This document shows, piece by piece, positions 5,243 to 64,000 of a stretch of 64,000 nucleotides of DNA; the stretch's first letter is position 1; each line of letters opens with the position of its first letter. Source of the DNA: Thermodesulfovibrionia bacterium (GTDB taxonomy: Bacteria; Nitrospirota; Thermodesulfovibrionia; Thermodesulfovibrionales; SM23-35); the NCBI GenBank assembly GCA_041500225.1, contig JBGQLV010000002.1, forward strand, positions 5,616 through 69,615, written 5' to 3'. The notes beneath the pieces were generated by a model, which searched no databases, had not been told where the DNA came from, and was given only the letters and a program-made list of their open reading frames with translations. A program made the position numbers and the translations under genes.

Positions 5243-5350
5243 TTTTAAGTCTCCCTTTCAAGTATTTCCTTGAGCACAACAGCATTGTTATACTCAACAT
5301 CTTTTGCTGAAAATAAAAGAGTAATTCTCTTCTTTCTTGCCTCGGTTTTT

Positions 5351-5611
5351 TTACTCTTTTTCGATTATCTCAAAATTCTTTATGAATTGACCAACCTGGA
5401 CACCGAGATAAACGCATTTGATTCCATCTATACATTCATCGGCATCTTTTTTCTCAAGATGTGTTGTTAGTTCATGCTTGCCTTTCTTAAATGTTACAAT
5501 GTAAGCATTCTTTTCCTTATTAAAATCAAGACCAACTGAGATGCCATGTTTTGTTATATCCGGATACATCTCCATTATTTTATCCTTCAAAGCAACATTT
5601 GTGTAACCCAT
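5351..5611 (-). CDS. small hypothetical protein (86 aa)
   Basis: An ORF with normal composition sits between the FDP and rubrerythrin-like genes on the same strand. I recognised no motif. Confidence 0.45.
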   Translation of the reverse strand: MGYTNVALKDKIMEMYPDITKHGISVGLDFNKEKNAYIVTFKKGKHELTTHLEKKDADECIDGIKCVYLGVQVGQFIKNFEIIEKE

Positions 5612-5662
5612 AAGCCCTCCTTTTAATTAATAGAAGTCTAAGATTAACCCTGAACTTTTATA

Positions 5663-6169
5663 TTATGCCCAGGGAGTCCCGCCATCCACAATGCTGTGCT
5701 CCTCCCACATGAACCAGCTTCCAGAGTCTGAAAGGAAAAAGTATGTATTTGCAAATATGTCATAGTGCTGCTGTTCCTCTTTGATAAGCTTCTCAAAGAG
5801 AGCTTTTTCCTTTGGAGTTTGAACCTCATTTACTGCTTTCTTATAAAACTCAATGCTATCTTTCTCCATCTGCATGGCAATCTTCAGAGCCTCCATTTCA
5901 TCTGTTGTTGACTCAATCTTTTCAAGTAAGGCATCCTTATTTTCTTCAAAGACGTTCTTTATCTTTTCCATTGGTCTTGCAAGATCATGGACCTTTATAT
6001 CGAGCCCCTCCAATATGCACTCAAAGTTTTCAAGATGTCCCTCTTCATCTTCCATGATTGACAGGAACATTTTTTTTCCAATCGGATGTCTTGTCTTTTC
6101 TGCAGCCTCTTTATAGAAGGCTATTGCATCAGTCTCTGTCTTTATAGCTATTTTAATAGCATTCGTCAT
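5663..6169 (-). CDS. rubrerythrin-like ferritin-fold diiron protein (no rubredoxin domain)
   Basis: There are two helix pairs with E...ExxH ligand patterns (TETDAIAFY...EDEEGHLENF and QMEKDSIEFY...KEEQQHYDIF). No CxxC rubredoxin tail is present. Confidence 0.75.
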   Translation of the reverse strand: MTNAIKIAIKTETDAIAFYKEAAEKTRHPIGKKMFLSIMEDEEGHLENFECILEGLDIKVHDLARPMEKIKNVFEENKDALLEKIESTTDEMEALKIAMQMEKDSIEFYKKAVNEVQTPKEKALFEKLIKEEQQHYDIFANTYFFLSDSGSWFMWEEHSIVDGGTPWA

Positions 6170-6228
6170 AATGCCTCCTTTTATATATCTCTATAATCTG
6201 TTTTTAAAGGGCATTCCGCTCCGACTTC

Positions 6229-7476
6229 TTATTTCATGCGGCTTTTTTGGAGCTCTTTAGCCATCTCTTTAATTTCTGTCAAGTCCCGCTGCATTTCACT
6301 CCAGCCATACCAAAGTGCATAGTCAGGATTAGCATGAAATGTTCCCTGAAATGTCCTCATCCGGTGTTCGAGAAACATAACAAATAGTTTTTGTTCAATC
6401 ACAGTTGGTGCATCATGGAATGTGAGCAGGTCGGGAAATGGATAAGCGTAGTTCTTCGGTTTATCAATTATACCCTCTTTGTATAAAGCGGCGACAGTGC
6501 GAATCGCCTCAGCCATGAGCCTATCAGACTCTTTGATCATCTGATCGCCTTTTTCTAACTCTGCCTTAGCAAAATTAATGGAATGACATTGGTTACAGGT
6601 CTTCACCATCTTATCGCGTTCTTTTTGCCAATCCTCCTGCGTCAGCCGGGCAATATTTGCAGCCCTTACAACGTCAAGTCGGGCTGTTGGTTTCCCATCA
6701 GGGTCTAGCACGCCAAGCCCTTGAAGAACAGTCGTACGGTCAGCAGTCCATTGCTTGTCTTCAGGCATTGGCAGTCTCACAGCGAGGAATCCCCATGCTG
6801 TTTTATTAGCATGGTTGCCATCTTGCAGATGGCAGGTCTGGCATGTTGGTGCAGCAACAGTTTCGGGAAGGGTCTTGTTCTGCTTTAATAAATACCGGAC
6901 GCCATGTTTGGAAGATGAATACATCTCCCATTGAGGGTGGTCAAATCCCATATGGCAGGTTTGGCAGGCCTGTGGCTGACTTGCCTCCTTAACGGAGAAG
7001 GTATGCCTTGTATGGCAAGCATCGCATGAAGCAACACCAAATCCTGCACCACCTTTTTTCAACTCTTGTATCTCGGCCCCGGTCTTCAATCCGATTTTGT
7101 GGCAACCACCGCAACCTTTCATCCCTTCCATCAGGGCCATCGGCTGCCAGTGTGCTGTTGGCATAGCTTTCATTGCAGCCCATGCGACAGCGTGTTTCCC
7201 ACCCTTGAATTGTTGTACCTGCGTTCCATGGCAAATTGCACATGTTTCCGGCGTTGGAATTCGGACATTCGCTATATCCTGAGCAGATTTATGTTGATCG
7301 CTATGGCATACCGAGCAGTTGACGCCACCTTGACTGTGTTTGCTCAGTTGCCAATCAGAGACGATGCTGGGGGTAATCTGTTTATGGCAGTCCACACATT
7401 CTTGAGCTGAAGCACCAGAAACAATAAGGATGCCCCATAAAATAATAAAAAACGTCCGGAATATAAATGGCTGCAT
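6229..7476 (-). CDS. secreted octaheme cytochrome c, hydroxylamine oxidoreductase (HAO) family
   Basis: It has eight CxxCH motifs (CVDCH, CSVCH, CAICH, CGGCH, CDACH, CQTCH, CQTCH, CNQCH). The N-terminal signal peptide ends ASA-QE. The C-terminal CNQCHSINFAKAELEKGD...LYKEG pattern recalls the HAO family. Confidence 0.8.
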   Translation of the reverse strand: MQPFIFRTFFIILWGILIVSGASAQECVDCHKQITPSIVSDWQLSKHSQGGVNCSVCHSDQHKSAQDIANVRIPTPETCAICHGTQVQQFKGGKHAVAWAAMKAMPTAHWQPMALMEGMKGCGGCHKIGLKTGAEIQELKKGGAGFGVASCDACHTRHTFSVKEASQPQACQTCHMGFDHPQWEMYSSSKHGVRYLLKQNKTLPETVAAPTCQTCHLQDGNHANKTAWGFLAVRLPMPEDKQWTADRTTVLQGLGVLDPDGKPTARLDVVRAANIARLTQEDWQKERDKMVKTCNQCHSINFAKAELEKGDQMIKESDRLMAEAIRTVAALYKEGIIDKPKNYAYPFPDLLTFHDAPTVIEQKLFVMFLEHRMRTFQGTFHANPDYALWYGWSEMQRDLTEIKEMAKELQKSRMK

Positions 7477-7592
7477 ATTTACCTCCTTAACAATTTCTTC
7501 TTTTTTGACTGTTTGTTTAATTCTAAACCCTTTAATTAAATTGTATCGTAAAAACTTTGTCTGTCAATAAGAATATGTGTTCCTCTAATCTC

Positions 7593-8624
7593 TCACAACT
7601 TGATGCCAGGCCAGTTTTCGATGGGATCAGTAGAGCAGATCACATGCATTCCGGCATCGGCAAATCTCTGGAATGCGGCGTTAGCCTGATCCGTATAATC
7701 TATGACTCCAGGTACAACGACCGGAGATGTACAATCTTTTAGAAGATATACTTTCTCTACCAGGCGCCTATCTTGAGCAAGAATGTCTTTTAAGAAATCG
7801 GCAATTGTCCAGGCGACACAATGACTCTTGGCTTGCCCGGCGATGATAACGGCATCAAATTGCAGGAGTTTCTTGAAAAACTTGTCGCTTTTCCGGGCAA
7901 TCGACTCTCCGTCCGGACCATACAACACTTCCGGACCAAGAACAGAGTAATGCTCGGTAAATGGCTTGTCTCCTTTGATATGAAAATCAGGCTGACTATA
8001 TCGGGCTATTCCATGGAAAAAGATCGCTTCCTCAACAGACGCAACCAGGGCATGGCCAACACCTCCCAACATGGCATGATATGGCCATATTGTTAGATCA
8101 TATTTACCACCCTCTTTTAGTTTTTTTGCATAATGCAGGAGATGCCGCTGCCCGAAATCCTCATTGATCTGAAAACTGTAACAAAGCGCAGGGTTAAATT
8201 TCCAAACGCCTTTCTGAATATCTTCTTCGAAAATGAGCGTGAAAGGCGCAGGGTGTTCTCCCTTATCATTGACCAAATAGATGGAATGAAAAATCTGCAT
8301 CGCCTGGTGTGTATCCATCGTTGGACAAATCTGAGTGATCACATCAAGATTTCGGTAAATGAATTCACACAGCCTTCTATTGTCGTCAATCGCCCCTGTG
8401 CCTGAACGTCCACCCACATATAATTCAAATCCAGGGATACAAAACGTATTTTGTACGTCTACGGCAACTAAACAGACCTTGAATACATCATTGGCAGCAG
8501 GTCTTATGTTATGCTTCTCCGCCCACTTCCTGGCCTCTTCAGACATTTCCTGATAAGAAACTTTCCGAACCTCTCCAACTTTTGCGGGGTTAAAATGAGG
8601 TGGAACAGGTAAATCATCACGCAT
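7593..8624 (-). CDS. isochorismatase-family cysteine hydrolase (nicotinamidase-like)
   Basis: It has VAVDVQNTFC (catalytic Asp context) and AGQAKSHCVAWT (nucleophile Cys context). The fold family is inferred from these motifs only. Confidence 0.65.
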   Translation of the reverse strand: MRDDLPVPPHFNPAKVGEVRKVSYQEMSEEARKWAEKHNIRPAANDVFKVCLVAVDVQNTFCIPGFELYVGGRSGTGAIDDNRRLCEFIYRNLDVITQICPTMDTHQAMQIFHSIYLVNDKGEHPAPFTLIFEEDIQKGVWKFNPALCYSFQINEDFGQRHLLHYAKKLKEGGKYDLTIWPYHAMLGGVGHALVASVEEAIFFHGIARYSQPDFHIKGDKPFTEHYSVLGPEVLYGPDGESIARKSDKFFKKLLQFDAVIIAGQAKSHCVAWTIADFLKDILAQDRRLVEKVYLLKDCTSPVVVPGVIDYTDQANAAFQRFADAGMHVICSTDPIENWPGIKL

Positions 8625-8868
8625 TATATAGTTCCTCCTTTAATCACTCCCCTGAATCTCCGACTATTTTAACCTTAATGTTGCAAAAACTTTTCTTGAT
8701 TTGGCAGGCAGATGTGTTGAAAAAGCCATATCAGCAACTCCTTACAGCCCTTCAATGTGGCCAGCCAGCCTCATGCCAAAAGACACTCACTGTGAGATTT
8801 GCAGTCATGTGAATCAGGATGAAACCTTGTTGCTTTATATGGGTTTTTCAGCACGTCTGTCTGCCTTT

Positions 8869-9360
8869 TTATGCAACGTTTGGGTTAAATTTCTCTCTCA
8901 ATGCCCTTTCAACCTCTTTAGTGACAAGACCTTTAACAGCGCCGCCATAGGACGCTATTTCCTTTACTATGCTTGAAGTTAAAAAACTGTATTCCTCACT
9001 CGGCATCATAAATACTGTCTCGATATTTGTGTTAAGCCTCCTGTTCATGTGAGCCATCTGGAGTTCATACTCAAAGTCAGAGACTGCCCTTAAACCCCGG
9101 AGAATCGCAACTCCCCTCTTTTCCCTGACATATTCGATAAGCAGGCCGTTAAATGCCTCAACCTTTACTCTTTTAAACCTCTTAATCGCAGATCTTATCA
9201 TCTTTAACCTCTCCTTAAGAGGAAAAAGAGGTTGTTTTCTATGACTTGGCGCTACTGCAATTATCACCTCGTCGAATATCATTAGACCCCTTTTAACAAG
9301 ATCAAGATGTCCGTTGGTTATAGGATCAAAAGTACCAGGATAGATCGCTATTTTTTTCAT
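8869..9360 (-). CDS. coaD: phosphopantetheine adenylyltransferase
   Basis: The N-terminus [22 protein letters not shown] carries the T/HxGH nucleotidyltransferase motif. The 163-aa length also fits. Confidence 0.95.
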
Positions 9361-9377
9361 AACTCACCCTTTCCGTC

Positions 9378-9959
9378 TTACTTATTGACGGACTTTCTGT
9401 AAAATGTCAGCATCGTATCACCATACCTGTAGCTTCTGTCTATCTTTAATTCACCTGCTGTTTCAGGCATTTCCCTCTTAAAAAAGTGTTCCACTATTAC
9501 TACTCCACTTTTATTTAAAAGTCCTTTTTCTCCAATCATTGGAAGTACTTTCTTTATCTCCTCAGAATGGTATGGCGGATCAACGAAAAAAATATCGAAA
9601 TTCTCTTTTTTAGAAGATGATTTTTCAAGGAATTCGTGCGCCCTGCTCTTAAACACCTGTGCCTTTTCTCGAAATCCAAATTCATCAGCATTCTTCTTAA
9701 TTGTAATAGCTCTTAAATCATTCGGTTCCACAAATATAGCACTGCTTGCTCCTCTTGACAATGCCTCAAACCCTACAGTTCCTGTACCTGCATAAAGATC
9801 AACAAAACTTGCATCCAAGATTCTCTCTCTTAATATATCAAAAAGCGCTTCTCTTACCTTTGAAGAAGTTGGCCTGAGTTTTTCCCTTTCCGATGTCTTT
9901 GATAATAACCTTTTTGTAGCTGTGCGTCTTCCTTTAGCAATACCACCCGAAATCCTCAT
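9378..9959 (-). CDS. rsmD: 16S rRNA (guanine966-N2)-methyltransferase RsmD family
   Basis: The SAM motif is DLYAGTGTVGFEALSRGA and the DPPY motif is FFVDPPY. It is adjacent to coaD, which is a common arrangement. Confidence 0.85.
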   Translation of the reverse strand: MRISGGIAKGRRTATKRLLSKTSEREKLRPTSSKVREALFDILRERILDASFVDLYAGTGTVGFEALSRGASSAIFVEPNDLRAITIKKNADEFGFREKAQVFKSRAHEFLEKSSSKKENFDIFFVDPPYHSEEIKKVLPMIGEKGLLNKSGVVIVEHFFKREMPETAGELKIDRSYRYGDTMLTFYRKSVNK

Positions 9960-52655: not shown

Positions 52656-53774
52656 ATGAATCCTTTAGAACAAAAAATAATCGGGAAAATCAAAAAAAAT
52701 GGTCCGATCACCTTTGAAACCTTTATGGATATTGTACTCTATGAGCCGGGTCTTGGCTATTATGCATCAGACAAGACAGAGATAGGAAGGGCAGGAGATT
52801 TTTATACAAGCCAGCATCTTCATCCTGCATTCGGTGCAATGATAGGAAAACAGATAGAGGAGATGTGGGAAATAATAGAAAAGCCCGCTGACTTTTATGC
52901 TGTTGAGCCTGGTGCAGGAGCAGGTCTTATGTGCAAAGATGTCCTGGATTATTTGCACAGCAGAGAGGTCTTCAGCTCATTGAAATATGTAATGATAGAA
53001 CCCAGTCCTTTCATGCAGTATAAACAGAAGAAATTGCTTGAAGGCTATTTAGATAAGTTAAAATGGGTCCCTTCATTAAAAGAACTCAGTAATATAAAGG
53101 GCTGTGTCCTTTCTAATGAACTTCTCGATGCATTTCCTGTTCACCTTATAGAAATGGAAGATGAATTGAAAGAGATTTATGTTACGGCTGATAATGATGA
53201 TATTAAAGAAATAAAAGGAGCTCTCAGTACAGATGCGATATCTTATTGTCTCAAAGAATTTTCTATAGAACTTCCCAGGGGATACAGAACAGAGATTAAC
53301 CTCAGGATAAAAGACTGGCTCAAGACCGTTAATGAAGTATTGTCAGAAGGATTTATTTTGACAATAGACTATGGTCATCCTGCGTGGGACTATTATAGCG
53401 AGGATAGAAACAGGGGTACATTACTCTGCTATTACAAACATCAGGTATTTGAAGACCCATATAAGAATATTGGCGAACAGGATATTACAGCACATGTTAA
53501 TTTCTCATCAGTAAAGAAATGGGGAAAAGAATTTGGATTTGAGACACTTGGATTCTGCCGGCAGGGCACTTTTTTTATCGCCCTCGGGATTGACAGGATA
53601 ATTAAAGAACTTTATGAGAATTCCCCAAATTATCTTTTTGAGATTGCAAACATAAAGAGGCTAATTTTTCCGGGGACAATCGGGGAAACGCATAAGGTAA
53701 TGATACAGTATAAGGGTAAGGCCAAACCTTCACTGAGAGGATTTTCCATAAAGAATCAGAAGGATAGGCTTTGA
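52656..53774 (+). CDS. SAM-dependent methyltransferase, DUF185 (MidA/NDUFAF7-like) family
   Basis: It has EPGAGAGLM (SAM loop), LSNELLDAFPVH and DITAHVNFS motifs characteristic of the family. Confidence 0.75.
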   Translation: MNPLEQKIIGKIKKNGPITFETFMDIVLYEPGLGYYASDKTEIGRAGDFYTSQHLHPAFGAMIGKQIEEMWEIIEKPADFYAVEPGAGAGLMCKDVLDYLHSREVFSSLKYVMIEPSPFMQYKQKKLLEGYLDKLKWVPSLKELSNIKGCVLSNELLDAFPVHLIEMEDELKEIYVTADNDDIKEIKGALSTDAISYCLKEFSIELPRGYRTEINLRIKDWLKTVNEVLSEGFILTIDYGHPAWDYYSEDRNRGTLLCYYKHQVFEDPYKNIGEQDITAHVNFSSVKKWGKEFGFETLGFCRQGTFFIALGIDRIIKELYENSPNYLFEIANIKRLIFPGTIGETHKVMIQYKGKAKPSLRGFSIKNQKDRL

Positions 53775-53903
53775 TTGAGTTACAAGTCAACGGCCTGACA
53801 CTTTTCTGCTACTCCAGGATTATTATAAGGCGGATAAGCTAAAATAACATATGAAGAACACCTAAGAGGTGAAATCAATACTCCAAAAGAGGTAAAGCCT
53901 GTC

Positions 53904-54845
53904 ATGGACGAATCCAAATTTGAACAATGTAAAATCGAAATGGAAAAAACAAAAAAGTTCCGTGAAGAAATACCGGGCATTGTTGAAAATCTTGTGCTCT
54001 CGTGTAACACTGAGGATTGTTTCGATCATGTAGATCTGGAACCCCTGCCCTCCAAAGAAGCAGTCATAGATATTATTTATATGGCATGCCGCATTCTCTA
54101 CCCGGGTTACTTTACCCGCACACGTATCGACAAAGTGAACCTGATTTATTACTTTGGACAGGAAGTTACAGCGTTTTTTGAAGCGCTGTCCGAACAGATA
54201 ACCCTCGCAATACGACATGAATGCCGTCGTCATAATATGGCCTGTGTAAACTGCGAAGAACGGGGTCAGGAAATCGCAATTAATTTTACGAATGAGTTTC
54301 CGCGTTTGAGGACTCTTCTCGCTAAGGATATTCGTGCCGCCTATGAAGGTGACCCGGCAGCGAAGAGTTATGACGAGATCATATTCAGTTATCCCGGCCT
54401 TTTTGCCATTACCGTTTACCGGATAGCACATCAGCTTCACGAACAAGGCGTATCATTAATTCCCCGGATCATGTCAGAATATGCACACAGCTTGACCGGG
54501 ATTGATATCCATCCCGGTGCTCATATCGGGAAGAGTTTTTTCATCGATCATGGAACCGGTGTGGTTATAGGTGAGACGACGCAGATTGGTAAACGCGTGA
54601 GGATCTATCAGGGAGTTACGCTTGGAGCCCTGTCTCTTCCAAAAGATGCAGTGGAACAGCTCAGAAACGAAAAGCGCCATCCGACAATTGAAGATGACGT
54701 GGTAATCTATTCAGGGGTTACCATACTCGGTGGGGAAACCATTATAGGTGCCCGTTCAGTAATCGGAGGAAACGTATGGATTACAACTTCAGTACCGCCT
54801 GATACAAAAGTGTTCATGAAAAAACCTGAACTGGTTTTTAAATAA
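53904..54845 (+). CDS. cysE: serine O-acetyltransferase (long form)
   Basis: It has left-handed beta-helix hexapeptide repeats with DIHPGAHIGKSFFIDHGTGVVIGET. It lies immediately upstream of cysK. Confidence 0.85.
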   Translation: MDESKFEQCKIEMEKTKKFREEIPGIVENLVLSCNTEDCFDHVDLEPLPSKEAVIDIIYMACRILYPGYFTRTRIDKVNLIYYFGQEVTAFFEALSEQITLAIRHECRRHNMACVNCEERGQEIAINFTNEFPRLRTLLAKDIRAAYEGDPAAKSYDEIIFSYPGLFAITVYRIAHQLHEQGVSLIPRIMSEYAHSLTGIDIHPGAHIGKSFFIDHGTGVVIGETTQIGKRVRIYQGVTLGALSLPKDAVEQLRNEKRHPTIEDDVVIYSGVTILGGETIIGARSVIGGNVWITTSVPPDTKVFMKKPELVFK

Positions 54846-54851
54846 AACATT

Positions 54852-55784
54852 ATGTCACAGATTTACCATGATATTACCCAAACAATAGGTGCTACGCCTT
54901 TAGTAAGGCTGAACTGGATTACAGAAGGGCTTCATGCGACAATCCTGGCTAAACTTGAATTCAAGAATCCTTTGGGAAGCGTGAAAGACCGTATCGGTCT
55001 TGCCATGATAAAGGCAGCAGAAGAGCAGGGCCTTATTAAAAACGATACGCTTATCGTAGAACCAACGAGCGGGAATACAGGGATTGCCCTTGCTTTTGTG
55101 TGTGCGACCAGAAAATACCGCCTGATTTTGACCATGCCCGAGACAATGAGTATCGAAAGGAGAAAACTCCTCAAGCACCTTGGCGCAGAGATAGTTCTTA
55201 CACCGGGAAGTGAAGGTATGAAAGGGGCTATCAATAAGGCCGGGGAAATACTATCTCAGAACCCGCATGCCTTTATGCCCGATCAATTCAGCAATCCGGC
55301 AAATCCCGAAATTCACCGCAGGACAACTGCAGAAGAGATCTGGCGGGACACCGATGGAGGTGTTGATATCTTCATTTCCGGGGTAGGAACAGGCGGCACT
55401 ATCACAGGAGTTGCAGAAGCAATAAAAGAGCGGACCCCATCCTTTAAGGCAGTTGCGGTTGAACCTGCTGACTCACCTGTACTGTCCGGTGGTAAACCTG
55501 GACCTCATAAGATTCAGGGTATCGGAGCAGGCTTCATTCCTAAAGTGCTGAATACCAAAATCATTGATGAGATTATCACGGTAACGAACGATCAGGCCTT
55601 TGAAACAGCCAGGGCTGTAGCTAAAATTGAAGGAATCTTGTGCGGCATTTCTTCCGGTGCAGCTGTTTGGGCTGCTCTTCAAATAGCCATGCGTCCTGAA
55701 AACAAAGGGAAGCAGATCGTGGTTATATTGCCGAGTACCGGCGAGCGCTATTTGAGTACAGATTTGTTCAAAGATTCATTATAG
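54852..55784 (+). CDS. cysK: cysteine synthase A (O-acetylserine sulfhydrylase)
   Basis: The PLP-lysine context is NPLGSVKDR. It also has [11 protein letters not shown] and [10 protein letters not shown]. Confidence 0.9.
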
Positions 55785-55832
55785 ATTCATACTGCCTAAT
55801 AGAAATACCTCAACGTTAACCCACCGTTCAAA

Positions 55833-56069
55833 TCAAGGCCTAACACTATTCTCCTGATTTCCTTTAATAATAATTTTATGCCCCTCAAATTCAACAAGTT
55901 GCCCTTTGCGTACTTTATAGCGCTTACGTAATTCCACATTACCATTAACCCTGACACGACCGTCAGCGATCACAGTTTTTGCTATACCTCCGCTATCGCA
56001 TAGCCCCATGACTTTCAAAGGGTTATTTAATTCGATAAATTCATTGTTTCCCAAATTAAACTCTTTCAT
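55833..56069 (-). CDS. S4-domain RNA-binding protein (YbcJ-like)
   Basis: The 78-aa ORF has IELNNPLKVMGLCDSGGIAKTVIADGRVRVNG...RKGQLVEF, typical of small S4-fold proteins. Confidence 0.7.
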   Translation of the reverse strand: MKEFNLGNNEFIELNNPLKVMGLCDSGGIAKTVIADGRVRVNGNVELRKRYKVRKGQLVEFEGHKIIIKGNQENSVRP

Positions 56070-56378
56070 CGATTATCCCTGCAATATTATTCGGCACACC
56101 TCTCGTTACTTTTTTAAACTAACGATTACCACTTGTGCCTGGCACAATTATATCATGGTTGATAGATGCGGAAGAAAGTGAGTGAAAAAGTGTTTGCTCG
56201 CCGTCGAGGTACCATTTTACTTGTTTCACCTGCTAATAGAGAGTTACGGCACATGACGAAATATGATAATTTTCATTTGAACTATTGTGTTTCCATGAGC
56301 ACTAAGTAGCATTGTAAGGAAGTAACTAAATATTGTGACCTGAACCTACAGCAGCCAACTATTTGCAATAAACAAGTC

Positions 56379-56412
56379 TGACCCCCTTCCTCCCCTGACC
56401 CCCTTCCTCCCC
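56379..56412. repeat. tandem direct repeat TGACCCCCTTCCTCCCC x2
   Basis: Two exact adjacent 17-nt copies lie at 56379..56395 and 56396..56412, upstream of the promoter-like element. Confidence 0.85.
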
Positions 56413-56457
56413 TTCTCAAATATTTTACTGTTAGCAATTTTACATTTGTATTTTCCC

Positions 56458-57117: not shown

Positions 57118-59325
57118 ATGGATTTTTATGCTGATGGAAACAAGAGTCAGAAGCTGATAACGCATATTGATGGCGTTAGGAATAATGCATCTTTATTTTC
57201 CAAAGCTTTTGGGTGTGAAGCTTGGGGCGCATTATTAGGTGACTGGCATGACTTGGGAAAGTTCATGGAGGCGTTCCAGAGATATATGCTTGAAGATGAA
57301 CAGCGTATTGAGCATGCCGTTGTGGGAGGGCGGTACGCAACAGATCAATTTGATGACCCTCTTCGTAAATTGGCCTTACAGCTTACAATTACTTGTCACC
57401 ATACCGGATTGCAAAATAGCGAAGCTCTCAGAGAACGATTAGTTAATGCGGCACAATTGGTACGCGATGCTATCAAAAATGCGCCGAATGATTTGTTGGA
57501 TAGAAAACTTCCTGAGTGGCCTGAGTGGCTGATTCCTCCAGATGTTACCGCTGAAGAAAAGAAAATAAATGAGTGGAAGAGAAGCTTGGAATTTTGGATA
57601 CGAATGCTTCATTCCTGTCTGGTTGATGCTGATTGGCTTGATGCTGAAAAACGGGACTCAGATGCACTGAAAAGACCCGATTTTCCTTTGATTGATGAAC
57701 TTAGAGATGAACTGGATGGATATATTGATGTAAAAGTTTCTGATGCGAAAAAAAATAATTGGACACCAGTCAATGCTCAAAGAAAAAATGTGTTGGATGC
57801 TTGTAGAGAGTCTGCAATAACCCAAACAGGATATTTTTCATTAACGGTTCCAACAGGTGGCGGGAAAACACTTTCCGGGATGTCCTTTGCTTTAAATCAT
57901 GCTGTAGAAAATAAAATGAAACGTGTGATTGTTGTTATCCCGTACACAAGCATTATCGAACAAAATGCATCCGTTTACGCAGAGGTTTTTGGGCGCGAAA
58001 ACGTAATTGAGCATCACTCAAATATTGAACCTGAAAAGGATACAGAAAGAAACCGTCTGGCATCAGAAAATTGGGATGCGCCTATCATTGTCACAACGAA
58101 TGTTCAATTTTTCGAATCGTTGTACGCAAACAAAAATACCAGACTTCGGAAACTTCATAACATTTCCAGAAGTGTCATTATTTTAGACGAAGTGCAATCA
58201 CTGCCTCCGGGGTTGTTGTATCCGATATTGGATGCAATACAGGAATTACGAGAACATTACGGTTGTTCAGTCGTTCTTTCTACAGCAACTCAGCCAGCCT
58301 TAAAAAAGCGCAAATCATTTATGTGCGGATTGGATACGGTGAGAGAAATTATTCCGGCCGCAATGAAGCTGTCGCAAAATTTAGCTCGTGTGAATATTGA
58401 ATGGGAAACAGGTAGCGCTATAGAATATCCAGATATTTCGGAACGTATCCTAAAAGAAAATATGCAACGTGTTTTGGTGGTCACACATAAGCGTAAGGAT
58501 GCCCGAGTGCTTGCCGGTTTGCTACCTGAGAATACTTATCATCTTTCGGCATCAATGTGTCCTTTTCACCGGAAGGATACTCTTAATAAAGTAAAAGAGG
58601 AGTTGTTGAAAAATGAATCCTCGACCGTTAGGGTAGTAAGTACGCAATTAATCGAGGCGGGGGTAGATATTGATTTCCCTGTCGTTTTCAGGGCATTAGC
58701 CGGTTTGGACAGTATTTCACAGACGGCAGGGCGTTGTAACCGTGAAGGCAAAGATGTTAATGGAGGTCGTCTAATTGTCTTTCGCGCACCAACAGAACCT
58801 CCGGCGGGAGTTTTGCGCTTGGGAAAGGGTATTACGGAAAGTTTACTTAATTCCAGTGAATCTGACGGCGTTTTGCGGGGCGATGATGGTTCTCTGGATT
58901 TAACGTCTCCTGCAATTTATGATACATACTTTCGTCTGTTTTATTCTGGTGTTCAACTGGATGGGGCAGGGGTTCAAAATGCCCGCGCAAGTCTGGATTT
59001 CCCTGAAGTCGCAAAGCGTTTCCGTATAATTGACAGCGTTGCATATCCTGTCGTTGTTCCTTACAAAGACGCATACGACAAGCTGGATGCCGTCCGTGCT
59101 AAATTCAAACCATCGCGGGATGACTTCAGATCACTTCAACCTTTTATTGTTCAAATATATTTTCAGGAGTTTCAGGCGCTGAATAACGTAGGCGCACTTG
59201 GATCTATACATGAGAAAGCGTTCTTTTATTTAACGCCGCCATATGAACGGCTTTATGATGAACGATTTGGTTTGGTTGTGTCTGAAGAAAATCTTTTTCC
59301 TAATTATTCAAAATTCAATGTTTAA
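57118..59325 (+). CDS. cas3: CRISPR-associated helicase/nuclease Cas3 (HD + SF2 helicase), type I-C context
   Basis: It has the HD motif WHDLGK and the helicase motif I PTGGGKT. The DEAH-like motif is ILDEVQ, followed by STATQP. The C-terminal SQTAGRCNREG is also present. Confidence 0.9.
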   Translation: MDFYADGNKSQKLITHIDGVRNNASLFSKAFGCEAWGALLGDWHDLGKFMEAFQRYMLEDEQRIEHAVVGGRYATDQFDDPLRKLALQLTITCHHTGLQNSEALRERLVNAAQLVRDAIKNAPNDLLDRKLPEWPEWLIPPDVTAEEKKINEWKRSLEFWIRMLHSCLVDADWLDAEKRDSDALKRPDFPLIDELRDELDGYIDVKVSDAKKNNWTPVNAQRKNVLDACRESAITQTGYFSLTVPTGGGKTLSGMSFALNHAVENKMKRVIVVIPYTSIIEQNASVYAEVFGRENVIEHHSNIEPEKDTERNRLASENWDAPIIVTTNVQFFESLYANKNTRLRKLHNISRSVIILDEVQSLPPGLLYPILDAIQELREHYGCSVVLSTATQPALKKRKSFMCGLDTVREIIPAAMKLSQNLARVNIEWETGSAIEYPDISERILKENMQRVLVVTHKRKDARVLAGLLPENTYHLSASMCPFHRKDTLNKVKEELLKNESSTVRVVSTQLIEAGVDIDFPVVFRALAGLDSISQTAGRCNREGKDVNGGRLIVFRAPTEPPAGVLRLGKGITESLLNSSESDGVLRGDDGSLDLTSPAIYDTYFRLFYSGVQLDGAGVQNARASLDFPEVAKRFRIIDSVAYPVVVPYKDAYDKLDAVRAKFKPSRDDFRSLQPFIVQIYFQEFQALNNVGALGSIHEKAFFYLTPPYERLYDERFGLVVSEENLFPNYSKFNV

Positions 59326-59343: not shown

Positions 59344-60069
59344 ATGAAAAAACGGAGAGGCCCGACATTAAGCCTTCGGGCAAAAGGCCCGCTTGCTATA
59401 TTTACGCGGCCTGAACTTAAAACAGAACGGGTGAGTTATGAGGTTCCAACCCCTTCATCTGTTCGCGGAATGTTTGAAGCTGTTTGCTGGAAACCCGCCA
59501 TTCAATGGCATGTGGAGCGCATCTATGTGTTCAATGAAATATCCTTTACTGCGATGAAGCGAAATGAGCTGAACACCAAAAGCAGTGTACCTTCAAGGCA
59601 GATGATGGACTCCGGTATGCGGGAATTCACATATGGGATATATGGTATAAATGCTGATGATCCTGACAGCAGGGCGCAACGAAATACGGTGGCTTTGCGG
59701 AATGTGGATTATCAGTTCGAAGCTTTTTTTACGCTTACCGAGAGAGCTGGGGCAGATGATAATATCTATAAATTTGTTGATATGTTTACCCGACGGGTGG
59801 AAAATGGACAGCATTTTCACCAGCCCTATTTCGGTTGCCGGGAGTGTATTGCTGAAATTCTTCCTCCCATAGAAAAGCCGGAAGAGCGGACAATTTCCAT
59901 ATCCAAAGAACTCGGAATTATGCTTTGGGATATTGAGTTCGGAACTGGTGAGGAACGGCAAAACACGTCTCTTTTTTTCAATGCAAAAATGGAAAATGGA
60001 AAAATGGAAATCCCATTGCATCCAATCGGTCGGGAGGAGGTGTCGTATGATATTGAAAGCGCTTTATGA
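59344..60069 (+). CDS. cas5: Cas5, subtype I-C (Cas5c/Cas5d)
   Basis: The 241-aa RAMP begins [39 protein letters not shown], typical of Cas5d. AGGAGG lies upstream. It sits between cas3 and cas8c as in I-C operons. Confidence 0.85.
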   Translation: MKKRRGPTLSLRAKGPLAIFTRPELKTERVSYEVPTPSSVRGMFEAVCWKPAIQWHVERIYVFNEISFTAMKRNELNTKSSVPSRQMMDSGMREFTYGIYGINADDPDSRAQRNTVALRNVDYQFEAFFTLTERAGADDNIYKFVDMFTRRVENGQHFHQPYFGCRECIAEILPPIEKPEERTISISKELGIMLWDIEFGTGEERQNTSLFFNAKMENGKMEIPLHPIGREEVSYDIESAL

Positions 60070-62038
60070 TTTAGCACAACGGGGAGAGCTTGTTCCGGAT
60101 TCTGATTTTGAGATCAAGCCGGTCGCTTGGGTCATTCGAGTGGGTGATAGTGGACGTTTTTTGGGTATTGAACCGTTGAAACAAGCAGAAAAGCTTCCTG
60201 AAGGGTCAAAGAAAAAACCAAGAATGTTAGGCACGCCAAAATTAGTTCCTAAGCGATTACCCAGTCGTTCAGGGAAACACCCTCAGGCTGAATTTTTTGT
60301 CGATAACCCGTTGTATGTTTTGGGCAAATCAATTCCTGCCGAGAAATATAAACCTTTGGTTTGTAAGACACGCCAAGGTATGTTTGCCGATAGAATAAAG
60401 CCATGCGCAGAAGAATCAGGTGATAATGCGGTCAAGGATTGCACATTGTTTTTACAAAAACATGCACGTGGTGAATTAGAGGTTGCAATACCTTCAGAGA
60501 TGAAAGGAAATGACCTGATTGCCTTTTCTTATCAAACGGAAGAGTCATTTGTCCATAAGAGGCCGGCTGTTATTGAATATTGGAGAAAAATTAATGCGGA
60601 TAGTCTTAGAGCGCAAGAGGGTTCCGTGTGCCTCATTACTGGAGAATTCTGCACACCTGCCAAAAAGCATAAAAAATTAAAAAATGTACCTCAAAAGAAA
60701 ATCAGCGACATAGCTTTAGCGCCTTGTAACCAACCTGCCTTTGAAAGCTATGGCTGGAAGGAAGCTGCCAATGCTGTGATTGGCGAGGAATCGTCCGATT
60801 TTGCAATGACAGCTCTAAACCGTCTTTTGCATCCCAATCCACCCGATCCGCAAGATCCGAATCAGACCTTATCAAAGCAAAATGTACATTTAAGCTCAGA
60901 TACGGTGGTTTGTTATTGGACACGGAATAAGAGTGCGTTGTCCGATTCTTTTGGTTTGGCCATTGAGGTGGATGAAGAAAAGGTCGAAGCGAAGCCAGCG
61001 CAGGTTGCGGAGATGTATAAAAGCCTTTGGAAAGGTATCCCCTATAAATTGGACAAGCCCGATGAATTTTACTCATTGGTTCTGTCTGGTGGCCAGGGAC
61101 GGGCAACCGTACGGGATTGGATAGAGTCGAACACACAGCATGTGGTGGATAGTCTGGCACAATATTTTGCAGACTTGAGAATTGAGCGCTGTTGCCCTTC
61201 GCCTAAAAAAGGAAGACATCCTGAAAGCTTTTCGCTGCCTTTATTGCTTGAGTCGCTTGCTGATCCGAAAGACCGCCGAAAAGAAGGTATCCCTTCTGCG
61301 ATCGGCACACAGTTCTACCGGGCATCAATTGACAAAAAACTATTGTTTCCACAGCCGGCATTTAGTCGGGCAATTTTGCGTTATAGAGCTGAATTGGGGA
61401 AGGAAAGCGACGAAAAAAAGGGCTGGTTCGTAAAGAATTGGAACGATGCCCGAGCGGCAATTATTAAAGCGTATCTAAATCGAAAACATCGGAAAGAATC
61501 CAAACAAGAGGAGGTATCAGAAAAAATGAATCCAACCTGTACAGATAAAGGATATTTACTTGGACAGCTTATGTCCGTATTGGAAAAACTACAGACAGCG
61601 GCCCTGGGGAGTGTTAATGCGAGTATTGTTGATCGTTATTTTGCTGGGGCCTCTGCGTCTCCCAAAAGTGTATTTGGAAGTTTACTTAGAAACGCACGGC
61701 ATCACGCCCGCAAAGCTAAAGATGAATCAAGAAACAAAGGACAAATATTTAATTTGGAGCGGTTAATTGACCAAATTTGCAGCCAGTTTGATGTTTCTTT
61801 GAAGAAAACAGAAGATCCAAAATCCGTCTATGAGAATGGATTCCCTGCGTATCTTTCCCAAGAGCAACAGGGAATGTTTGTTTTGGGATACCATCAAATG
61901 CGCAAATGGCTGTGGATGACACGCGAAGAGCGGGATATCTGGAATGACGAACATTCCGATGCTTCCCGTGCATATTTGTGGGAAAAGAAGGAAAATGATT
62001 TAGAAAATTCAACTGAAGAAAAAGGAGAAAACCAATGA
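60047..62038 (+). CDS. cas8c: Cas8c (Csd1) large subunit, type I-C
   Basis: ATG 60047 follows GGGAGGAGG. The N-terminus MILKALYDLAQR is typical of Csd1. The track ORF from 59933 is an upstream extension that overlaps cas5. Confidence 0.85.
   Translation: MILKALYDLAQRGELVPDSDFEIKPVAWVIRVGDSGRFLGIEPLKQAEKLPEGSKKKPRMLGTPKLVPKRLPSRSGKHPQAEFFVDNPLYVLGKSIPAEKYKPLVCKTRQGMFADRIKPCAEESGDNAVKDCTLFLQKHARGELEVAIPSEMKGNDLIAFSYQTEESFVHKRPAVIEYWRKINADSLRAQEGSVCLITGEFCTPAKKHKKLKNVPQKKISDIALAPCNQPAFESYGWKEAANAVIGEESSDFAMTALNRLLHPNPPDPQDPNQTLSKQNVHLSSDTVVCYWTRNKSALSDSFGLAIEVDEEKVEAKPAQVAEMYKSLWKGIPYKLDKPDEFYSLVLSGGQGRATVRDWIESNTQHVVDSLAQYFADLRIERCCPSPKKGRHPESFSLPLLLESLADPKDRRKEGIPSAIGTQFYRASIDKKLLFPQPAFSRAILRYRAELGKESDEKKGWFVKNWNDARAAIIKAYLNRKHRKESKQEEVSEKMNPTCTDKGYLLGQLMSVLEKLQTAALGSVNASIVDRYFAGASASPKSVFGSLLRNARHHARKAKDESRNKGQIFNLERLIDQICSQFDVSLKKTEDPKSVYENGFPAYLSQEQQGMFVLGYHQMRKWLWMTREERDIWNDEHSDASRAYLWEKKENDLENSTEEKGENQ
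61526..62038 (+). CDS. cas11: probable internally translated small subunit Cas11c (in-frame within the cas8c 3' end)
   Basis: An in-frame ATG at 61526 is preceded by GAGGAGG (61508..61514). The product begins MNPTCTDKGYLLGQLMSVLEKLQ. Type I-C systems are reported to make Cas11 from an internal start in cas8c. Confidence 0.5.
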   Translation: MNPTCTDKGYLLGQLMSVLEKLQTAALGSVNASIVDRYFAGASASPKSVFGSLLRNARHHARKAKDESRNKGQIFNLERLIDQICSQFDVSLKKTEDPKSVYENGFPAYLSQEQQGMFVLGYHQMRKWLWMTREERDIWNDEHSDASRAYLWEKKENDLENSTEEKGENQ

Positions 62039-63165
62039 AAGAAGCTATCAAAAATCGTTATGAATTTGTTTATCTGTTTGATGTAAATAAAGGAAATCCA
62101 AATGGGGACCCAGATGCAGGGAATGCTCCTCGTCAGGACTATGAAACGGGGAAAGGATTAGTTACGGATGTTTGCCTGAAACGGAAGATTAGAAACTATG
62201 TTGATATCACAAAAAACAACCAGGCGCCTTATGAAATTCATGTGAGAGAAGGCGCTTTTCTTTCCGAGCATCATAAGCGCGCACATTTGGCGATTGAAAA
62301 TGAAACGATCCAGATGATTGTTCCCGATGATTTGGTAGCCGAGTTTAAAGCATTTGAAGCATATCCGGATGGAATCGTTTTTTCTGCTAAAGGCGAGCGT
62401 CCATGCTTGGTCTTGTCTTTATCTGGACTGGAAGAAACAGAGAAAGATGTGAAAAAACTGAAAGAGAAAGAGAAGAAAGAAGATGCCGGGAACAAGAAAC
62501 TGATATCGCCTGCAGCAAAAGCAAAGCTCCGTGAACTATTCATTGATTCAAAAGAGAAAAAAGCGGCGCAGTGGATGTGCAAAAACTTTTTTGACGTTCG
62601 TACATTCGGTGCGGTTATGTCTACCGGCGATATGCGATGTGGGCAGATTAGAGGGCCTGTTCAATTTGGATTTGCGGAAAGCATTGATTCAATTGTGGGG
62701 AAAGAAATATCAATGTCGCGGACTGCTGCAGTAAGTATAGATGACCCTGATCAAAAAGGGTTAGGTGCTCGAAAATCAATTGTTCCTTATGGGTTGTATC
62801 GGGTTCATGGATATATTTCTGCACATCTATCAAGTCAGACTAACTTTTCAGAGGATGATTTGGAAATGTTGTGGTCTGCGCTGATGAATATGTTTGATCA
62901 AGATCCCGCCGCTGCTCGAACTGGGATGCACGCTCAGAAGTTGATCGTTTTTAAACATGTTGGAACTGATAAAGATGAAAAGCAAAAAAAAGAACAAGCA
63001 AAATTAGGATGTGCACCTGCGCATAAATTATTTGAAATGGTAAATGTTGAATTAATCAATAAAGACAAGCCTCCACGTTCTTTTGCTGATTATAAAAAGA
63101 TTGACTTTGCGGATATTAAATCTAAGGCAATAGTGTTGGGCGTTGAAGCAATTGAAATGCTGTAG
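62035..63165 (+). CDS. cas7: Cas7, subtype I-C (Csd2)
   Basis: It begins IKNRYEFVYLFDVNKGNPNGDPDAGN. It also has VTDVCLKRKIRNY and CKNFFDVRTFGAVMSTG...IRGPVQFGFAESID, hallmarks of Csd2. At 376 aa it is longer than I expect. Confidence 0.9.
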   Translation: MKEAIKNRYEFVYLFDVNKGNPNGDPDAGNAPRQDYETGKGLVTDVCLKRKIRNYVDITKNNQAPYEIHVREGAFLSEHHKRAHLAIENETIQMIVPDDLVAEFKAFEAYPDGIVFSAKGERPCLVLSLSGLEETEKDVKKLKEKEKKEDAGNKKLISPAAKAKLRELFIDSKEKKAAQWMCKNFFDVRTFGAVMSTGDMRCGQIRGPVQFGFAESIDSIVGKEISMSRTAAVSIDDPDQKGLGARKSIVPYGLYRVHGYISAHLSSQTNFSEDDLEMLWSALMNMFDQDPAAARTGMHAQKLIVFKHVGTDKDEKQKKEQAKLGCAPAHKLFEMVNVELINKDKPPRSFADYKKIDFADIKSKAIVLGVEAIEML

Positions 63166-63299
63166 TCATGAAGGAATTTGGCACTTCCACAAAGACCGAA
63201 CTGAAGCTGATAGGCGTGGCATGTCTACTGGAAGGAGCTCGCGCTGGCTAATACCGGTGAGGCGGGTATGCGAGGACATGACAGAAAGGAGGTTTAAAC

Positions 63300-64000
63300 T
63301 TGGAATCAAATATAGCCGTATTTAAGGGCAAAAAGATTCGTAAGACCCTATACAACAAAGAATGGTGGTTTTCTGTAGTAGATGTTGTTGGAGTGCTCAC
63401 TGACAGCCCTGATGCTGGCGCATATTGGAGAAAGCTAAAACAACGGTTAAAAGAGGAAGGAAGCGAAGTCGTGACATTTTGTCACGGGTTGAAGCTGCCT
63501 GCTCCTGACGGGAAACTGAGAGAGACTGACTGTGCCAATACTGAGGGTATATTCCGACTTATCCAATCCATCCCTTCTCCCAAGGCAGAGCCTTTTAAAC
63601 GCTGGCTTGCAAAAGTCGGCTATGAGCGCGTACAGGAAATAGAAAATCCGGAGCTTGCCACAAAAAGGACGCGGATGCTTTATAAGCTCAAAGGTTATTC
63701 CGATGATTGGATTGAAAAGCGTATGCGCGGCATCGCCATCCGGGAAGAATTGACTGATGAATGGCAGAAGCGGGGCGCGGAGGAAGAAAAGAACTATGAA
63801 ATTTTAACCGCGGAAATATCAAAGGCAACTTTTGGCATTACTCCCGGAGAATACAAAAAGCTCAAAGGACTTAAGCGGCAGAATCTGCGCGACCATATGG
63901 ATGATTTCGAGCTGATTTTTACGATGCTTGGAGAGCGCGCTACCACGGAAATTCATCGCACAGAAGACTCTGAGGGTATGAAAAAGCTTAAAACGGACGC
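63300..64000 (+). CDS. Bro-N domain protein, DinD/antirepressor-like (3' end beyond window)
   Basis: A TTG at 63300 lies 7 nt after AAGGAGG (63286..63292), and the frame stays open to the window edge. It is absent from the ORF track because there is no stop. The translation reads ...WWFSVVDVVGVLTDS...KLRETDCANTEGIFRLIQSIPSPKAEPFKRWLAKVGYERVQEIENPE..., which matches the widespread Bro-N/DNA-damage-inducible-protein-D-like family. Confidence 0.8.
   Translation, partial: MESNIAVFKGKKIRKTLYNKEWWFSVVDVVGVLTDSPDAGAYWRKLKQRLKEEGSEVVTFCHGLKLPAPDGKLRETDCANTEGIFRLIQSIPSPKAEPFKRWLAKVGYERVQEIENPELATKRTRMLYKLKGYSDDWIEKRMRGIAIREELTDEWQKRGAEEEKNYEILTAEISKATFGITPGEYKKLKGLKRQNLRDHMDDFELIFTMLGERATTEIHRTEDSEGMKKLKTD

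Follow-up and report, generated by a model that had tools for sequence, protein, structure and literature searches.

The question raised by this locus is why a gene for a Bro-N domain protein should stand directly behind the interference genes of a type I-C operon of CRISPR (short palindromic repeats, clustered and regularly interspaced) and cas genes. The window, by which we mean the whole 64,000-nucleotide (nt) stretch analysed (Thermodesulfovibrionia bacterium, GenBank assembly GCA_041500225.1, contig JBGQLV010000002.1, positions 5,616 to 69,615 of the forward strand), ends in such a locus, and there a short junction follows cas7, beyond which a Bro-N gene begins and continues past the window's end. 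The first-pass annotation of this DNA took the gene to occupy the place of cas4-cas1-cas2 and offered three readings of it, namely a mobile-element insertion, a cas-associated accessory and a sign of an interference-only system. The gene is best read as selected embedded cargo, neither a core Cas component nor a disruptive insertion.

The continuation of the locus was read from contigs that encode exactly the window's Cas7. One of them, the 93-kilobase (kb) Joint Genome Institute metagenome contig L001, is 100% identical to the window over 63100-64000, and on it the TAA of the Bro-N gene and the ATG of cas4 are separated by a 2-nt gap, with the rest of the adaptation module behind:

L001 12090-12713: cas4
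L001 12710-13741: cas1
L001 13751-14041: cas2

After cas2 follows a CRISPR array with 27 copies of the 32-nt I-C repeat GTCGCCCCTCGCACAGGGGCGTGGATTGAAAC. The NCBI assembly GCA_041479265.1 shows the same gene order as L001 as far as cas1, where its contig ends. The window's type I-C system is complete, with nothing missing or broken. Extending the contig, the check that the first-pass annotation had proposed, thus recovered cas4, cas1, cas2 and an array of 32-nt repeats; the apparent substitution of the gene for cas4-cas1-cas2 was an artefact of the window's edge, and the notion of an interference-only system has to be given up, since the adaptation genes and the 27-repeat array follow directly. 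Within the array, two successive spacers (L001 14686-14850) are identical (ATCAATGTAGTCTCAATGAGATATGCCGAGTACG), which indicates that a repeat-spacer unit was duplicated. On the 3' side of the array lie a BrnT/BrnA toxin-antitoxin pair and an AbiEi-like gene.

The features of the Bro-N gene inside the window are the following:

63286-63292, + strand: Shine-Dalgarno sequence AAGGAGG, 7 nt 5' of the TTG start, read directly from the sequence
63300-64000, + strand: embedded Bro-N/DdrC-DinD-like gene of the PADLOC PDC-S13 family (model PDLC04920); the full gene is at L001 11266-12087
63336-63614, + strand: Bro-N domain, amino acids (aa) 13-105 (PF02498, E=3.6e-13; predicted local distance difference test (pLDDT) of the AlphaFold2 model ~90)
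63717-64000, + strand: beginning of a helical C-terminal domain (aa ~140-253) that is related to those of DdrC and DinD

The strong ribosome-binding site and the TTG at 63300 opening a Bro-N gene that leaves the window were as first annotated, and this start is consistent with the N-termini of homologues. The reading frame stays open from 63300 to 64000, giving 233 codons inside the window; the full gene has 273 codons on L001, and its stop would map to window coordinate 64121. On the 233 window-encoded residues, PF02498 scored 50.4 bits against a gathering threshold of 25.6 bits, and an NCBIfam scan of them returned no family at E<=0.01. The PADLOC model PDLC04920 matched with E=3.6e-121 over nearly the whole protein (aa 2-271 against profile positions 2-275 of 286), and a PHROG search gave a full-length match to a PHROG of unknown function (E=1.6e-93). 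The AlphaFold2 model of the full protein, built from a 54-sequence alignment, reached a pLDDT of 91.8, and neither this model nor a Pfam scan showed an enzymatic or membrane effector domain.

PDC systems are phage defence candidates (PDC), proposed from their embedding in BREX, DISARM or type I restriction-modification (RM) operons (bioRxiv 10.1101/2024.01.29.577857), and PDC-S13 is accordingly a candidate, predicted anti-phage gene. No functional test of PDC-S13 was found in the accessible portion of that paper by Payne et al. or of its supplement text. The terms 'CRISPR-Cas', 'cas4' and 'Bro-N' do not occur in the paper's text, and neither PDC-S13 nor Bro-N occurs in the accessible part of the supplement text. 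A literature search returned no paper on PDC-S13 and, for 'Bro-N' with 'Cas4', unrelated work only; the CRISPRicity preprint and a network-based cas-gene paper mention neither Bro-N nor DinD. The gene is a member of a catalogued but uncharacterised candidate family whose CRISPR-Cas host context was left unanalysed in the source paper.

The genomic contexts of the family were then collected in a gene-anchored survey of 80 species-level genomes together with seven look-ups of close homologues, as follows:

Type I-C, gene between cas7 and cas4: the window, L012, L050, L068, L101
Type I-C with a variant gene order, gene between cas3 and cas4: L011
Type I-C, gene between cas4 and cas1: L034, L058, L088
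Type I-C, gene upstream of cas3: L043
CRISPR array, gene just past an 82-repeat array: L040
Type I-E, gene between cas6e and cas1: L041, L042, L046
Type V-A, gene between cas12a and cas4: L047
Type III RM, gene between Mod and Res: L021, L022, L087
Type I RM, gene inside or beside the operon: L033, L045, L102
Non-defence, gene beside tRNA synthetases, gyrA and similar genes: many loci

In CRISPR operons of types I-C, I-E and V-A, copies of the family thus share the orientation of the cas genes and mostly stand directly 5' of cas4 or cas1. CRISPR operons enclose about 13 of the 80 species-level loci and restriction operons about 9 or 10, a share that by our estimate, rather than by a computed statistic, is far above that of a random gene. 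In a neighbour-joining tree without support values, the CRISPR-embedded copies fall into at least five clades, and about 7 of 11 apparently independent CRISPR placements stand directly 5' of cas4 or cas1 (2 of 8 slots at random; P=0.008). The module cas4-cas1-cas2 follows the gene in many independent genomes, which by the first-pass annotation's own criterion speaks against the insertion that it had considered. In other loci the gene and cas4 overlap by 1-4 nt; co-transcription with the cas genes and translational coupling to cas4 are probable.

Some of these contexts deserve separate description. In L040, the 82-repeat array (3920-9902) comes after cas1-cas2-cas4 and ends about 100 nt before the Bro-N gene copy. 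In the Elusimicrobia contigs L014-L019, an 84% identical copy (L014 10001-10858) overlaps by 1 nt with a 126-aa truncated Cas4 gene, behind which a helix-turn-helix protein is encoded; no further cas genes were found within 10 kb, housekeeping genes lie upstream, and the arrangement resembles a stranded gene-cas4 pair. In the I-C locus L071 (8679-10317), the gene lies between short open reading frames (ORFs) that both match the N-terminal part of RhuM only, and it may have inserted into a RhuM gene that stood at the cas7-cas4 junction, or have recombined with one.

How regularly the gene belongs to the I-C system was judged from a Cas1-anchored survey of the 80 closest relatives of the locus's Cas1 in metagenomes (L107-L186, 67-96% identity), 49 of which were informative in that they covered the locus without a gap from the last effector gene to cas1. 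The gene was present in full in 8 of these 49 I-C loci (about one in six), with a relic in one more. One close relative without it is L111, whose Cas1 is 95% identical to that of L001 and whose adaptation module is 90% identical to it at the nucleotide level: there cas7 abuts cas4 with no copy of the gene, and the homology to L001 begins exactly at the stop codon of the Bro-N gene. The consistent presence expected of a core or dedicated I-C accessory is therefore not seen, given the 8 of 49 loci and the absence from L111.

Comparison of close relatives indicated how the gene moves. Between L107 (3757-5365) and L001 (11143-12705), the flanks are 94-98% identical and enclose a gene body of 56-77% nucleotide and 71% protein identity, so that one allele of the cassette was exchanged for another by recombination. 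From 15 nt 5' of the gene start through cas2, L001 and L011 are 86% identical at the nucleotide level, and their interference modules are unrelated and even differently ordered. L001 and L034 are 87.6% identical through the cas7 stop and 66-73% identical beyond it, and L034 carries its gene in the other slot, between cas4 and cas1. For the pair L001/L011, the ratio of nonsynonymous to synonymous substitution rates (dN/dS) was 0.077 for the gene and 0.065-0.073 for cas4, cas1 and cas2; the dS of the gene (0.55) was close to that of cas1 (0.60) and cas2 (0.62), indicating that the gene was co-inherited with the adaptation module. No integrase or transposase was found within 10 kb on either side of the gene, and no direct or inverted repeats or target-site duplication bracket it, the only matches being short chance ones inside the gene; the downstream integrase and att sites that the first-pass annotation suggested looking for were likewise not found in this range. 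By these sequence comparisons, the gene is a discrete, exchangeable and optional single-gene cassette that is under strong purifying selection in this lineage.

The gene is one of several kinds of cargo at this seam. Some non-cas ORF, always co-oriented, was present at the effector-cas4 or cas4-cas1 junction in 31 of the 49 informative loci, and Pfam assigned the other junction ORFs to PF05635 (12), RhuM (10) and Fic (6), in addition to PIN, YoeB, AbiEii, BrnA, MazF-like and HEAT proteins. Like restriction operons, the two junctions appear to be hot spots for cargo, and the guild that occupies them in the I-C loci is the one known from restriction operons. An obligate pairing of PF05635 with the Bro-N gene was considered and rejected, as their co-occurrence among the 49 loci was no higher than expected.

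The spacer in front of the gene proved to have a history of the same kind. Its features are these:

63166-63299, + strand: junction of 134 nt between the interference and adaptation modules; the homology to L034 ends at the cas7 stop, and the homology to L011 (86% at the nucleotide level) starts 15 nt before the Bro-N start
63180-63251, + strand: relic of a truncated PF05635-family (23S rRNA intervening-sequence protein, four-helix-bundle) gene, consisting of its last 23 codons and stop

As had been annotated, cas7 ends at 63165 and a 134-nt GC-rich stretch follows (51.5% GC for 63166-63299 against 40.4% for the window). Window 63180-63330, which includes the first 31 nt of the Bro-N gene, has 98.7% identity with L109 4437-4587 and 98% with L107 3757-3907, and the counterparts of 63180-63251 in L107 and L109 are the 3' ends of ORFs of 92 and 107 aa. 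These two ORFs are truncated and align with embedded proteins of ~190 aa at the same junction elsewhere, the size class behind the PF05635 matches (12 members). Since it matches the ends of truncated PF05635-type ORFs, the supposed GC-rich spacer is what remains of a former cargo gene, which was trimmed when the interference module now present became attached. No sigma-70-like promoter and no sequence resembling a terminator was found within 63166-63299, and the cas operon appears to drive the gene. The idea of a structured or regulatory RNA in the junction was rejected on these grounds, because the predicted RNA fold was no better than that of shuffled sequences (z=0.59) and the region is a gene relic.

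The family extends far beyond these loci. It counts more than 8000 relatives as a lower bound and 10,184 clusters at the 50% identity level. The best 120 of the more than 8000 relatives are 79-98% identical across many phylum labels, including Kiritimatiellae, Elusimicrobiota, Omnitrophota, Actinobacteria, Nitrospiraceae and Planctomycetota; the 80 species-level genomes, many of them from bacteria of the candidate phyla radiation (CPR), have copies at 67-84% identity, and relatives across phyla are 67-86% identical at the protein level. Among phages, 4 of 50,697 records matched the family, all of them short metagenomic fragments with at most 52% identity, and among 72,556 plasmids there were 9 full-length matches. 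Because it is near-absent from sequenced phages and rare on plasmids, the family is not a typical phage antirepressor. One contig, L104, carries two paralogues of the family (3574-4404 and 7001-7828) 2.6 kb apart, the second directly 3' of a T5orf172/MUG113 (GIY-YIG-like) gene and near a DUF1016/YhcG nuclease gene.

Hints to what the protein may do came from its fold. In a Foldseek search of the AlphaFold2 model against solved structures, the only significant matches were six chains of Deinococcus radiodurans DdrC (E=3.8e-7 to 8e-5, probability 1.0, ~250 aligned columns), and the next-best match had E=0.2; the DdrC structures compared were PDB 7UDI, 8U0G and 7QVB. The sequence profile of the family, searched against PDB, likewise found the C-terminal domain of DdrC at E=1.4e-3 to 4.8e-3, and the C-terminal domains have in common the motifs W-x3-RL-S...R-EL and G(L/V)K...RD-x-T-x2-EL. 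The isolated N-terminal domain of DdrC (8U1J) matched weakly by Foldseek (E=0.64, probability 0.54). By fold (E=3.8e-7) and C-terminal profile (E=1.4e-3), DdrC appears to be a divergent relative of the large Bro-N/DinD-like family. A literature search on DdrC and DinD together returned nothing relevant, and no report of a structural link of DdrC or DinD to the family was found in it.

Escherichia coli DinD (b3645) has a Bro-N domain at aa 10-105 (E=1.5e-7), and its C-terminal half aligned with the family profile by hhalign (E=2.3e-5, probability 76%); a direct BLASTP comparison of the window protein with DinD was not significant (E=0.21). The description of the protein as Bro-N/DinD-like consequently stands for its architecture, through PF02498 and the hhalign alignment, and does not extend to direct similarity; the family is distinct from DinD itself. 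The PHROG families labelled 'anti-repressor Ant' gave weak N-terminal matches only (E~1e-4 to 1e-5). DdrC, an asymmetric homodimer, detects nicks as well as double-strand breaks and compacts DNA that is broken (PMC11347143), and by likeness to it the window protein is a putative binder of nicks or breaks. DinD is an SOS protein that is reported to remove or inhibit RecA filaments (Uranga 2011, as cited in PMC4849656 and PMC10602874), and an inhibition of RecA filaments is a putative activity of the window family by likeness to DinD.

Taken together, these findings suggest a protein that would bind a universal ligand, be it DNA with breaks or nicks or the recombination machinery loaded on such DNA, and that would bind no locus-specific operator. 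The near-identity of the protein across phyla and the unrelated host operons argue for a universal ligand over a locus-specific regulator, and the relationship to DdrC and DinD points to nicked or broken DNA, or RecA on such DNA. A ligand of this sort would allow useful pairing with any DNA-cutting immunity, be it I-C, I-E or V-A CRISPR or type I or III restriction. One possible effect is that the protein holds on to cut invader DNA, or sequesters it, and prevents its repair by recombination; another is that it keeps collateral damage to the host chromosome low. A break-binding helper or second-line factor working alongside DNA-cutting immunity is favoured because of the conservation, the DdrC/DinD kinship and the fact that all the host systems cut DNA, and we put its chances at about even. 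A stronger version, in which the protein is a true break-sensing partner that recognises Cas3, Cas12a or restriction cuts and either delivers fragments to Cas4-Cas1-Cas2 or blocks RecA-dependent rescue, seems to us rather improbable.

Several observations weigh against the helper. Most of the 80 species-level loci are outside any recognisable defence operon, with tRNA synthetases, gyrA and TIM as neighbours, and the protein may serve DNA repair as a housekeeping function that has nothing to do with immunity. The PDC family is a prediction whose function was proposed from gene context. The link to DdrC is mainly C-terminal with a profile E-value of only ~1e-3, and the DinD alignment has an hhalign probability of 76%. 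Finally, the preference for the cas4/cas1-proximal slot hints at a more specific tie to adaptation.

This last point leads to a dedicated adaptation accessory, which would capture or protect DNA ends produced by Cas3, RecBCD or Cas12a for Cas4-Cas1-Cas2, or would restrain RecA and so leave fragments available as prespacers. In addition to the placement directly 5' of cas4 or cas1 in three types, I-C, I-E and V-A, and in about 7 of 11 apparently independent cases (P=0.008), such a role would agree with the co-divergence of the gene with cas4, cas1 and cas2 while interference modules were swapped, with the Elusimicrobia lineage that keeps the gene and a truncated cas4 without other cas genes, and with the DNA-end binding that the DdrC-like fold of the model may suggest. 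We nevertheless consider it unlikely, as only 8 of 49 related I-C loci carry the gene and L111 has a 90% identical adaptation module without it; moreover, the same slots carry RhuM, Fic, PF05635 and toxins, so that the preference may reflect a permissive module boundary, and the family is found equally often in restriction operons or alone in CRISPR-free genomes, including those of CPR bacteria. The many copies that stand alone fit an autonomous, CRISPR-independent single-gene abortive-infection or defence system, which might, for instance, compact the nucleoid or the phage DNA upon breaks. A KilA-N-containing protein, BstA, is a precedent for single-gene abortive infection; the company at the junctions consists of toxins and abortive-infection-type genes (RhuM, Fic, AbiEii, PIN, YoeB, MazF), and the full-length PDC-S13 match agrees with the guilt-by-embedding treatment of PDC-S13 in PADLOC. 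The protein, however, has no enzymatic or membrane effector domain, the literature search found no experimental test, and conservation this extreme across phyla is unusual for arms-race genes; autonomous defence is thus a possibility to which we give somewhat more credit than to an adaptation accessory, yet well short of an even chance.

The polymorphic presence of the gene also bears on the readings in which it does nothing for the operon or harms it. Selfish or neutral cargo, tolerated at operon junctions and spread by recombination with no benefit to CRISPR, would account for breakpoints that coincide exactly with the gene borders, for the swapped allele of L107, for the relic of another cargo gene adjoining the Bro-N gene and for the scatter of CRISPR-embedded copies over at least five clades of the family tree. 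It is difficult to reconcile with a dN/dS of 0.077, on par with cas1 and cas2, and with 67-86% identity across phyla, both of which imply strong selection on protein function, nor were mobility genes or terminal repeats found, and the family is rare on plasmids and phages; hitchhiking is quite unlikely in our judgement. A role in regulating cas transcription, or as an antirepressor of that operon in the manner of phage Bro-N/Ant proteins, is suggested by the DNA-binding nature of the Bro-N module and by the weak N-terminal matches to PHROG 'anti-repressor Ant' (E=4e-5 to 1e-4). A locus-specific regulator would, however, co-vary with its operator, whereas copies of this protein from unrelated operons and phyla are 70-85% identical; sequenced phages practically lack it (4 of 50,697 records), and its full-length PHROG match is to a family of unknown function, which makes regulation very unlikely. 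Least tenable is a mobile-element insertion that replaced or disabled the adaptation module and left an interference-only system: the window alone, with no adaptation genes or array, did give that impression, but cas4, cas1 and cas2, intact and subject to purifying selection, lie directly 3' together with a 27-repeat array, no integrase or att-like repeats were found, and we regard this reading as practically eliminated. What survives of the first-pass proposal of an insertion is that the gene is a discrete optional cassette; integrase, transposase and flanking repeats were not found, and the family is near-absent from phages and plasmids. The proposal of a cas-associated accessory came nearest, with the correction that the gene is found in about one in six related I-C loci and is equally at home in RM operons, which argues for generic embedded cargo over a dedicated I-C component.

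The interference module to which the cargo is attached consists of four genes inside the window:

57118-59325, + strand: cas3 (HD nuclease and helicase), first gene of the I-C interference module (TIGR01587 E=1.4e-30, TIGR01596 E=2.5e-23, PF22590)
59344-60069, + strand: cas5c (TIGR01876, type I-C Cas5c, E=4.1e-37; PF09704 E=5e-31)
60047-62038, + strand: cas8c/csd1 (TIGR01863 E=2e-89, PF09709 E=1.6e-102)
62035-63165, + strand: cas7/csd2, 376 aa (PF05107 E=1.1e-90; TIGR02589, type I-C Cas7/Csd2, E=8.3e-87)

The start of cas8c at 60047 was taken over from L001, the identical contig, where the gene is called with 663 aa. The I-C-specific NCBIfam models TIGR01876, TIGR01863 and TIGR02589 and the Cas3 models all passed their cut-offs. 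A tandem-repeat search found no CRISPR array within the window, where cas4, cas1 and cas2 are also absent, and an Rfam scan of the whole window gave zero matches. The 376-aa Cas7 (62035-63165) compares with ~250-285 profile positions and matches the profile in two stretches, with ~90 additional residues in its N-terminal third; L034 encodes a comparable Cas7 of 384 aa. Upstream of cas3, at 56378-56413, lies a perfect tandem repeat of the 17-nt unit CTGACCCCCTTCCTCCC in 2.1 copies. The identical I-C locus occurs in two upstream neighbourhoods (L001 1-5000 and window 52656-56069): L001 and L002 have a sigma-54 activator, Fic and HTH_17 genes, and the window and L003 have Methyltransf_28, a serine acetyltransferase-like gene and a PALP enzyme gene. 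Proteins at least 90% identical to the window's Cas7 carry the labels Desulfobacterales, Smithella and Vecturithrix. It follows from the two neighbourhoods and the near-identical Cas7 under several taxon labels that the whole I-C locus is mobile.

The seam between interference and adaptation is thus a site where nearly two-thirds of the sampled I-C loci carry an embedded non-cas gene. If the finding holds up, the presence of the restriction-operon guild at this seam would extend "guilt by embedding" to CRISPR loci, and DdrC, published as unique to Deinococcus, would gain a very large set of relatives. The family would also provide a testable function for DdrC and link DNA-break sensing to prokaryotic immunity. 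Should the protein prove a true break-sensing partner, DdrC and DinD would be domesticated, damage-inducible offshoots of a defence-embedded family instead of lineage-specific inventions.

Compared with known systems, the window protein shares with DdrC a size of ~230-275 aa and two domains, a small N-terminal DNA-binding domain and a helical C-terminal one; it differs in that its identity to DdrC is just 12-14% and in that DdrC belongs to the radiation response, not to immunity, and was described without homologues outside Deinococcus (PMC11347143). DinD is of nearly the same length (274 against 273 aa) and, by hhalign, combines Bro-N with a homologous C-terminal domain, whereas its gene is a stand-alone SOS gene between yicC and yicG, outside any defence operon. 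The phage Bro/Ant/KilA-N antirepressor-type proteins (PHROG 2011, 130 and 2899) have the N-terminal Bro-N fold in common with the window protein and match it weakly in that domain alone, and viral structural matches reached template-modelling scores of 0.25-0.35 at 11-18% identity. The RhuM, Fic/DOC, PF05635, AbiEii and PIN/YoeB/MazF cargo occupies the same two junctions and co-occurs with the Bro-N gene in several loci; these proteins have unrelated folds and presumed activities and are typically far less conserved across phyla. PADLOC PDC-S13 is likewise a single co-oriented gene nested in multi-gene DNA-targeting defence operons and matched by its hidden Markov model over the full length, except that the host operon here is a type I-C CRISPR-Cas system, with relatives in I-E and V-A.

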